DNA from: Parachlamydiales bacterium
Lineage (GTDB): Bacteria; Chlamydiota; Chlamydiia; Chlamydiales; Rhabdochlamydiaceae
Assembly (NCBI GenBank): GCA_963705295.1
Contig: OY970065.1
Location: 1,408,001 to 1,472,000, forward strand
Reading direction: 5' to 3'
DNA length: 64,000 nt
Numbering within the stretch: the stretch's first letter is position 1; the number at the start of each line of letters is the position of its first letter. The notes beneath the pieces were generated by a model. The model had not been told where the DNA came from. It saw nothing but the letters and a program-made list of their open reading frames with translations, and did not search any database. The translations under genes and the position numbers were made by a program. Positions 45,240-47,107 of this stretch are shown in pieces.

Positions 45240-47107
45240 ATGAAAAATTTGAAATACTGTTTGTTTATTTTATTAACAGGGAACTAAAAAAGATGACAAA
45301 GAGCGCTAGCGAGGCAAAGCCAGATCGATTCTCGCGAGGAATAACATTCTTGAATACGAAGGATTCCGAGCGAGAATCGATATGGCGAAGCCGTAGCAAG
45401 CTATTTGTCACCTTTTTTAGTTCCCTGTTAATATTTGCACTGTTTTCGTCTGTTAATGGTGATGAACCGATTGTTTTGAAGGTAAAGACAGCTGTTAACC
45501 CGGATAATGCATTAATTATTGATTTTAAGGTGAAATTGAATAAGCCGGCTATTCTTAAAATTTCTTATTGGAATGAAGAGGCGGGTGCATTCAAATATAA
45601 GCCACAACTCGACTTTTCTACGAGTCAGAGGTTTTCGATTCTTAGACTCAGGGCAGAAACCACTTATCGTTATTCTCTTGTTGCCATGGATCAAGAAGGT
45701 CATCGTTCTGAAAAATTCACTGGTAAGTTCACGACAGGCCCACTTCCGCCAGAAATAGCTGACATTTCTATTAAATTAACTCAAGGGAAAAGGACGACTT
45801 ATCCTCTGACACTTTTTGATCAAAACACCAATTTTTTTAATGGATATATTGCCGTGGACTCAACCGGACAAATTGTTTGGTATTACCAAAACCCGTTGGT
45901 GGAGCAGGTTGGAAATATCATCAAAATGCCCAGTGGAAATTACTTATATGCATCTGGCTTCTTTCTAAGCGGTTCATCGAATACCTTGGTAGAGATAACC
46001 CCATTTGGTCGGATGGTTCGGCAAAGCCCTCTTATTTGCAACTCATCCGTGCCCGTCATCGGTGGTGTTGATCTCCACGATATGCAGTATGTTGATGGTA
46101 AGATCCTTCATCTTGGTCAATTGGCTCCAAAGGTTCATGGATTTTCTCGTCCTCAACTGGGTGGAACGATCCGTGAATGGAATCTCGGGACAAATACAGA
46201 TCGCCTGGTATGGAACCCTTTTGACTTCCTTAACCCTGTTTCAGATAGATCGTCTTTATCGAACGTGATTATCGATCTGAGCTGCAAGGCGGCTATTCCC
46301 GCCCAAGATTGGATCCATTCCAATGCTCTTGCAATAGGATTAGACAACAACTTCATTTATGGCTCGAGAAGCCTCAGTCATGTCATCAGCCTAGGTCAAC
46401 ATCCTGACCCGAGAAATGAAGAGATTGCTGTTTGTCACCCCAGTAGAAAAGACCTTCCCTGCAGACAATGGATCTTAGGTGGAATTGACAGCGATTTTAC
46501 ATTTCCAAATCCAGATGATCAATTTTATAATCAACATAATCCACAACAAATTATTAACCTGAGGGGTCAAAAGGCGACAAGATGCGCTGCGAGGCAAAGC
46601 CAGATTGATTCTCGCGAGGACTACATTCTTGAATATGAAGGATTCCGAGCGAGAATCGATATGGCGAAGCCGCAGCAAGCAGGTTGTCACCTTTTGACCC
46701 CTCGGGTTAATAAATCAAGCAAATTTAAAACAAATATTCTTCTGTATGATGACGGAAATGAGAGACCCGCTTCACAAGGTGGGCAGTATTCTCGTGCTCT
46801 AGAGCTCGAACTCAATTTTAAGACAATGGAAGCTAAGAAAGTGTGGGAATACCGGCATAAGCCAGATATTTTTACGGATGCAGTGGGTAGTGTAACGAGA
46901 CTGGACAATGGAAATACGGTCATCGATTTTGGGTTCCCGCCAGTTCAGGATCCAACAACCCCGCCTACCCTCAGAATCATAGAAGTCACTCGGAAAGGGA
47001 AAATCGTTGCAGAAATCAATGTCAAAGCCTCAAAGAAAGTTGGGGATAATCTCATTTATAGAGCTCATGTCTTGGATACTCTCGCTGGGGAAAAACAGGT
47101 CCCATGA
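45240..47107 (+). CDS. arylsulfotransferase (ASST)-family protein carrying two palindromic-element insertions
   Basis: DWIHSN, FYNQH, YDDG, YRA motifs; ancestral ATG 45240 now frameshifted by E3; in-frame ATG 45293 inside E3; 51-aa E4 insertion. Confidence 0.75.
45274..45430. mobile_element. palindromic MITE-like element, copy E3 (153 bp plus TA), in the signal-peptide coding region
   Basis: TA-ACAGGGAACTAAAAAAGATGACAA ... TTGTCACCTTTTTTAGTTCCCTGT-TA; removing it plus one TA restores MKNLKYCLFILLIFALFSSVNG. Confidence 0.9.
46555..46709. mobile_element. palindromic MITE-like element, copy E4 (151 bp plus TA), in-frame within the CDS
   Basis: TA-ACCTGAGGGGTCAAAAGGCGACAA ... TTGTCACCTTTTGACCCCTCGGGT-TA; adds 153 nt = 51 codons. 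Confidence 0.9.

Follow-up and report, generated by a model that had tools for sequence, protein, structure and literature searches.

A hairpin MITE copy, here called E3, lies in the signal-peptide region of an arylsulfate sulfotransferase (ASST)-family gene (45240-47107, + strand). All positions without a genome or locus prefix refer to the window, i.e., the whole stretch of 64,000 nt that was analysed. The insertion is located at a Leu TTA codon and frameshifted the gene. We consider it fairly probable, judging from the sequence, that translation of ASST restarts inside E3, either through coupling at ATG 45293 or from the loop TTG at 45350, and that the protein is exported by means of a rebuilt leader. 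The genome carrying the window (G000; 2.13 Mb, one contig) contains about 73 full copies of this hairpin MITE flanked by TA, E3 among them, and a signature within the family suggests selection on the copies located in signal peptides.

The ASST gene and the insertion of E3

The gene at 45240-47107 was assigned to the arylsulfate sulfotransferase family by a match to PF05935 (1e-27, 97.6 bits versus a cut-off of 24.2), and sulfotransfer is predicted. The mature protein (45461..47107, +, PF05935) contains the His/Asn/Arg/His motifs; DLHDM, WIHSN, GSR and NQH were all found. In a set of 82 sequences three catalytic-type residues were invariant and one was near-invariant, while the first catalytic-type His was near-invariant as seen in a 12-sequence alignment only. 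Residues were numbered through the motifs, without structural superposition. The catalytic residues of the E. coli enzyme are His 252, His 356, Asn 358, Arg 374 as well as His 436 (PMC10932419). The predicted structure had a mean pLDDT of 88.6, and its top fold matches were AssT (PDB 3ELQ, 3ETS) and Cpz4 (9KF4). ASST resembles both in profile match, fold (TM about 0.6) and catalytic-type motifs; it differs in sequence (~14-17% identity) and in a 53-residue element-derived loop present in ASST only, and its activity is a prediction. A single-sequence search of the PDB with ASST gave no match.

The loop is encoded by E4 (46553..46713, +), a second copy of the same element, which was inserted in frame and contributes 53 residues. 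These residues were modelled with low confidence (pLDDT 38-56) between two strands, two strands past the start of the strand with the last catalytic-type His motif. In the model, the core fold is intact despite E4.

An earlier note on this DNA had proposed an alignment with orthologues lacking the insert. No full-length ASST homologue was found in 60 relatives, where every match was to the E4 peptide, and the gene is accessory. Signal-like N-termini were found in three of the best four database homologues; the nearest of these are 39-41% identical to ASST, too distant to define the insertion boundary. Upstream of ASST lies an LRR gene (44736..45206, +), whose stop is 11 nt before a host GTG at 45218. 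Other genes in this part of the window are a serpin-like ORF (40471-41793, +; PF00079, 7e-7), a phosphoesterase gene with a signal-like N-terminus (47119-48567, -) and glycerol facilitator, kinase and dehydrogenase-like genes (48624-52424), the last three genes being named by inspection. A promoter and terminator scan gave results at chance level only.

E3 (45273..45431, +, TTAAC...GTTAA, 159 nt) is flanked by the two TA copies of the target-site duplication, the left one (45271..45272, +) inside the Leu TTA codon and the right one at 45432-45433 (+). It folds into a single long hairpin (-104.9 kcal/mol, z -9.5, 0/200 shuffles), and its terminal inverted repeats consist of 34-nt arms with 94% complementarity. 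The ends TATTAAC...GTTAATA are common to nearly all of 70 copies, with a third base that co-varies left and right within subfamilies. The boundary was derived from a copy inserted in frame in an AbiEii gene. Since this gene shows a gap of 53 residues (159 nt) against 11/11 homologues, the outer TA is the target-site duplication, and E3 adds 161 nt net (the 159-nt element plus one TA), resulting in the frameshift. The leader length of an element-free orthologue of another interrupted gene (L304, see below) fits this boundary. In the earlier note, 155 nt had been deleted, which does yield the peptide given there in frame, and the E3 copy had been taken to fix the element ends. This copy alone cannot do so because many deletions restore the frame, and the 155-nt boundary was rejected since it would predict an AbiEii gap of 51 residues instead of 53. 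Removal of 161 nt gives the ancestral ASST leader MKNLKYCLFILFALFSSVNG.

The native frame is broken by E3, as had been reported. From ATG 45240 it reads MKNLKYCLFILLTGN up to the stop TAA 45285-45287, leaving a 15-codon leader ORF (MKNLKYCLFILLTGN*, 45240..45287, +) that ends in the left arm; further ATGs in this frame are located at 45225 and 45231. Translation likewise agreed with the reported downstream frame, which is open from 45194 and through all of E3, includes an element ATG (45293..45295, +) 5 nt past the leader stop, and leads via RSRSKLFVTFFSSLLI to FALFSSVNG-DEP. The right arm thus encodes a basic-plus-hydrophobic segment (45386..45433, +, right TA included) joined to FALFSSVNG (45434..45460, +), the surviving host part of the signal peptide, also in line with the earlier description. 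From either start inside the element, the rebuilt leader comprises an RSRSK n-region, a 20-residue uncharged run and a V-N-G end, which are features of a predicted Sec/SPI signal peptide as judged by a hydropathy heuristic only. The best 10-residue hydropathy was 2.59 for the rebuilt and 2.78 for the ancestral leader, compared to 0.64 for the host stub, which is too short for an export signal without the element residues. By inspection, cleavage would occur after the Gly of FALFSSVNG, before Asp 45461.

The ATG at 45293 is a trait of the subfamily. The two nearest siblings of E3, which differ from it at 3 and 4 sites and both have TGA at 45326, share this ATG, and an origin as a fresh mutation was rejected. 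In both siblings it is paired with CAT, so the mismatch of A45293 with C45411 in the E3 stem, although correctly noticed before, reflects a change in the right arm of E3 and not a partner arm predicting GTG. Nor is it the only mismatch of the outer arm, as a second one occurs 8 nt further inward (offset 30). The one arm change of E3 gives Thr in place of the Ile of the siblings and makes the segment less hydrophobic. That the variable arms are not derived from the target was a correct claim on other grounds: the E3 arm recurs at three unrelated sites, which indicates that arms are inherited. An ungapped comparison with copy 517872, being out of register, was discarded.

The MITE family and the base at 45326

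A search for end pairs yielded 70 copies in G000, or 73 with three added by hand, and a profile search gave 81 matches, fragments included. The ends are TA-TTAAC...GTTAA-TA, preceded by T in 42/70 and followed by A in 55/70 copies. Inserts are 118-207 nt long, with no transposase gene inside. The outer arms comprise 25 left-arm variants in 39 aligned copies, yet they co-vary. From these features the family is classified as a dispersed, non-autonomous, TA-targeting hairpin MITE. Its end pattern was present in 26/128 other genomes of the host family, and named records with the same element belonged mostly to Chlamydiae or Rhabdochlamydiaceae, from which an environmental chlamydia is assumed as host. 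An Rfam search with E3 gave two sub-threshold hairpin matches, which were taken as chance.

TA-duplicating bacterial MITEs such as Correia, ERIC and RUP are linked to IS630-type transposases. The family of E3 is similar to these three in being short and multicopy and in having inverted repeats, a TA duplication, a stem-loop and no transposase gene; unlike them, it has highly variable yet co-varying outer arms, and no partner transposase was found. Searches limited to the IS630-type profiles DDE_3 and HTH_Tnp_IS630 gave no match in G000, where one broken Y1_Tnp piece was detected. Beside lone element ends in G000 no transposase ORF was recognised by eye. Between a left and a right end 1.1 kb apart, only ordinary genes are located.

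Most copies lie outside genes, and about 11 are clearly inside genes (15 candidates, 4 doubtful). Five of the 73 copies, E4 included, are read through in frame; the in-frame internal insertions at G000:1098991 (AbiEii), 1203045 (a repeat-like long protein) and 1283334 (a 718-aa protein) are of the type known from Rickettsia palindromic elements (RPE). G000 also contains plainly interrupted genes without other lesions, one of them also hit twice. Three more copies in the window (3209-3370, 26261-26445 and 53742-53861, all on the - strand) interrupt no long ORF; one has the same core as E3, one a different core, and one is internally deleted.

Several further repeat structures were recorded. The copy at G000:686812 has a right arm turned into a perfect mirror of the left, which shows arm-to-arm conversion. 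At L331 (G000:1948254, 1949518 and 1950637) three short end relics lie in a PKS-like cluster, one of them in frame within an ORF, and judging from these relics copies appear to be trimmed by deletion. Other palindromic repeat families occur in G000 at 954164, 1083676, 118425, 763259, 1253587 and about 924050, the last sharing a loop motif with some copies of the E3 family.

The core of E3 is shared by 41 copies. At 45326..45328 (+), E3 has CGA where 39/41 same-core copies have TGA; the only other CGA copy is G000:443688. In E3, the C opens the frame from both ATG 45293 and GTG 45218. The usual TGA is located 11 codons past the position of the E3 ATG, in the frame joining the gene. Both CGA copies are frameshifting insertions in signal peptides. 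The longest open exit frames among the 41 copies (54, 53 and 52 codons; the next has 42) belong to the three signal-peptide insertions. The tests on alleles and enrichment were picked after the data had been seen, and n is small: random placement of two C alleles would give this pattern in 1 of 820 cases, C among the eight in-gene same-core copies is distributed 2/2 versus 0/6 (Fisher p 0.036), and 3 of ~11 in-gene copies are in signal-peptide codons, which make up 1.4% of the weighted TA targets (n = 11-15, p 4e-4 to 1e-3, with crude gene calls).

In all nine foreign same-core copies the base at the stop site is C, which makes C the probable ancestral state and T the derived one in this genome. 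The C of E3 would then be a reversion or a retention, and in either case it is present in this genome only in copies for which it matters. The change from T to C repairs a G-T pair in the stem, and the opposite repair was seen in 2/39 aligned copies; as a stem repair, C may arise or persist easily. The element as a designed maker of signal peptides was rejected, as 17/41 copies have a stop within the last 11 codons of the exit frame.

It is possible, although we doubt it, that ASST is a young pseudogene killed by E3 and that the T-rich palindrome incidentally yields the open frame, the ATG and the hydrophobic tail; as part of this explanation, C45326 would, with similar doubt, have repaired the stem neutrally or have been kept from the ancestor. 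ASST is accessory and received two insertions within 1.3 kb, the ATG is buried in the stem, ATG and hydrophobic tail were inherited from the subfamily, and C is common in relatives, all of which fits a dead gene. The intactness of ASST is weak evidence against it because interrupted genes in this genome look clean too. A pseudogene would leave unexplained that C is found here only in the two copies in which the TGA would be in the frame of the gene. It would also leave the in-frame E4 unexplained, a state allowed by 22/246 combinations of copy, orientation and phase, though E4 may predate E3. If ASST is indeed dead, rescue may still hold for the core lipoprotein gene described below.

Insertions in other signal peptides and candidate starts

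The second CGA copy (L022 2189-2350, -; G000:443688), whose arms differ from those of E3, shifted the frame of a gene for a family-3 solute-binding lipoprotein, again within the leader. The gene is single-copy and present in 18/18 congeners and 56/60 family genomes. Orthologues have short ordinary lipoprotein leaders, and the rebuilt leader reads ...RSRSKQVVIFFGLGLILLLLGC, ending LLLLGC. Only in this copy is the loop TTG preceded by GAGGAGG (-11.6 kcal/mol). No decay of the protein was seen, with 1/35 invariant columns changed, by a method that is blind to recent pseudogenes; its end branch was 0.32 versus 0.28 for hemH, and 0.44 versus 0.23 for the sister in a first tree. This copy is a cleaner test case for rescue than ASST. 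Elsewhere in G000, at 598852, a 5'-truncated copy immediately precedes a lipoprotein-like leader, MMMGFLVLLLNILLLMGC, and is in frame with it owing to the loss of one base.

The third insertion (L023 1359-1519, +; G000:1899858) is in frame and lies within the signal peptide of a GMC oxidoreductase; no other copy can be read in that phase from a native start over its whole length. The usual stop is absent because an E3-type core is combined here with the kind of arms that normally accompany the other core type.

The foreign set comprised 108 distinct full copies, taken from fetched loci whose flanks were often short. Thirteen of the 108 lie in an ORF that has a Met upstream, and signal-like leaders account for three of these. 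The signal-peptide copies L089 (G003) and L262 are in frame. At L304 (G085), in a lipoprotein gene of 33/40 family genomes, the copy has an internal TGA and a weak TTG restart near the exit (-3.8), which counts against rescue, or as a poor rescue, and agrees with the pseudogene explanation of ASST. At L333 (G024), a copy with an imperfect end disrupts a thioredoxin-like exported protein, found in 34/40 family genomes, at its N-terminus. The loop TTG of this copy is changed to ATG, which makes it the one such case among nine foreign same-core copies; an ATG just past the element could serve too. Comparable insertions in other genomes thus number four, one with an internal stop. A peptide search for N-terminal fusions, weak because of the short query, gave three matches, two of them from this genome. 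The third (P0122), an Lnt-family protein of another genome that ends in the element peptide, is apparently a contig end or a C-terminal fusion. A similarly weak search with the short element peptide against cluster representatives found only itself.

Under the reading we favour, ASST is rescued from within E3 after the MITE landed in the signal peptide at the Leu TTA codon and shifted the frame. By one route, ribosomes from the native start would enter the stem, stop at TAA 45285 and re-initiate five bases on at ATG 45293; this would require the rare CGA at 45326 and produce a leader of 56 residues. By the other, initiation would occur at TTG 45350 in the open apical loop, behind the Shine-Dalgarno-like GAGGA (45336..45352, +), with a leader of 37 residues. 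In both cases the right arm would supply the basic and hydrophobic stretch, joined to the surviving cleavage region, and signal peptidase would cut off the element-encoded peptide and leave the mature N-terminus unchanged. Rescue would be something that certain arm variants happen to allow, and among signal-peptide insertions selection would retain those with this capacity.

Once the hairpin is complete, ATG 45293 is buried (P unpaired 0.13-0.15); until transcription reaches the right arm it is accessible (0.58). The loop TTG 45350 is the more accessible of the two starts (P unpaired 0.5), and its GAGGA duplex of -5.9 kcal/mol is attained by 24% of 975 long-ORF starts. Coupling through unfolding or through re-initiation across short gaps is established (PMC12548453), and stable structure past a stop is reported to lower or block re-initiation (PMC7518266). 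The clues favour different starts: CGA points to the ATG, since a start at TTG 45350 would not need it, and the altered loops of two other copies favour the TTG. The gene may use both starts, and expression of ASST is probably below its level before the insertion. The earlier proposal that the element donates a start codon and an export signal gains from C45326 and the parallel cases and loses its argument from a lone derived ATG; the TTG is the more accessible start, and translation and export are predicted. At a further locus, L332 (G000:2043845), a left-end relic may provide a purine-rich site before an ATG with a signal-like peptide.

Translation could instead begin outside the hairpin at the host GTG (45218..45220, +), coupled to the LRR stop, so that E3 is read through and supplies the export signal only, within an 81-residue leader. 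This is improbable in our judgement. The frame is open from 45194 and requires CGA, the GTG has an accessibility of 0.46 and a duplex of -5.0, and it is the start of the database gene call (629 aa). The 443688 copy has no such upstream start, its exit frame being closed 52 codons before the exit. In addition, the leader would be very long and contain a second hydrophobic patch, which is unusual for a Sec substrate, and A AAA AAG before the hairpin in this frame resembles a -1 slippery site, which was also counted against the GTG.

We give very little credence to a frameshift near the left arm from the native ATG, or to excision of E3 in part of the population, either of which would dispense with an internal start. 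At 443688, an A6 run before AGG TGA might permit a +1 shift. E3 would need a -1 shift before TAA 45285, where no slippery heptamer is present, and excision is opposed by the lack of an IS630-type transposase match in G000. Among sequencing runs, none of RNA was listed as containing this genome; one DNA sequencing run, with a small share, gave contigs for two short stretches, both outside E3.

Relation to known repeats and implications

The Yersinia MITE YPAL/RU-2 provides, at locus YPO1552, a hydrophobic frame that is part of a predicted signal peptide (Delihas, PMC2229807). E3 is likewise a bacterial MITE with a hydrophobic frame in a predicted signal peptide. The YPO1552 fusion is proposed as a new exported protein, whereas E3 shifts the frame of a signal peptide that was already there and seems to take its place; the signature of a stop lost, or a frame open, only in signal-peptide copies applies to the E3 family and not to YPAL/RU-2 as described there. 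RPE are palindromes of ~150 bp in protein genes of an intracellular bacterium (PMC10969869, PMC2229807). E4 and the three other in-frame internal inserts resemble them, a likeness by description. RPE insert in frame and are kept in the mature protein; E3, in contrast, causes a frameshift, depends on a restart and would encode a peptide that is cleaved off. Also unlike RPE, most copies of the E3 family lie outside genes. The Neisseria repeat REP2 supplies the genes to which it is fused with a start codon and a ribosome-binding site (PMC3184786). REP2 is described there as lying upstream of genes, with a promoter, whereas the candidate start of E3 is inside a hairpin that interrupts the coding region. 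In the usual copy of the E3 family, the frame stops 8 codons past its ATG. Disruptions as well as in-frame fusions are described in PMC3049150 and PMC5896051.

MITE-derived predicted signal peptides, repeats donating a ribosome site and an ATG, and in-frame palindromes in proteins are thus already known. A literature search covering few subscription papers found no paper on this MITE family, nor on a frameshifting insertion whose damage is mended by a rebuilt leader. New are the family itself and the recurrent, statistically suggestive survival of its copies in signal peptides. Fusions of MITEs with proteins have so far been known mostly as in-frame passengers or unverified gene predictions. 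Here, the copies of one family serve as mutual controls, and only the signal-peptide copies have the rare open-frame states. The old 'tinkering' claim that a repeat provides a start and an export signal becomes testable via defined point changes.

As a tentative and rather doubtful extension, signal peptides may offer this MITE family a safe harbour in environmental chlamydiae generally. By means of the exposed loop start, together with arms that act as ready n- and h-regions, insertions in Leu-rich leaders would be healed, including those that shift the frame of core genes, and signal peptidase would remove the parasite peptide, a protein-level excision without splicing. Hosts would then tune the start by loss of the stop, a stronger Shine-Dalgarno site or a change from TTG to ATG, and the hairpin would become a new translational control on exported proteins. 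If the rescue reading is true, a frameshifting insertion at the 5' end of a gene for an exported protein should not automatically be annotated as a knock-out, and signal peptides would be a low-cost entry for mobile DNA into core genes of intracellular bacteria.
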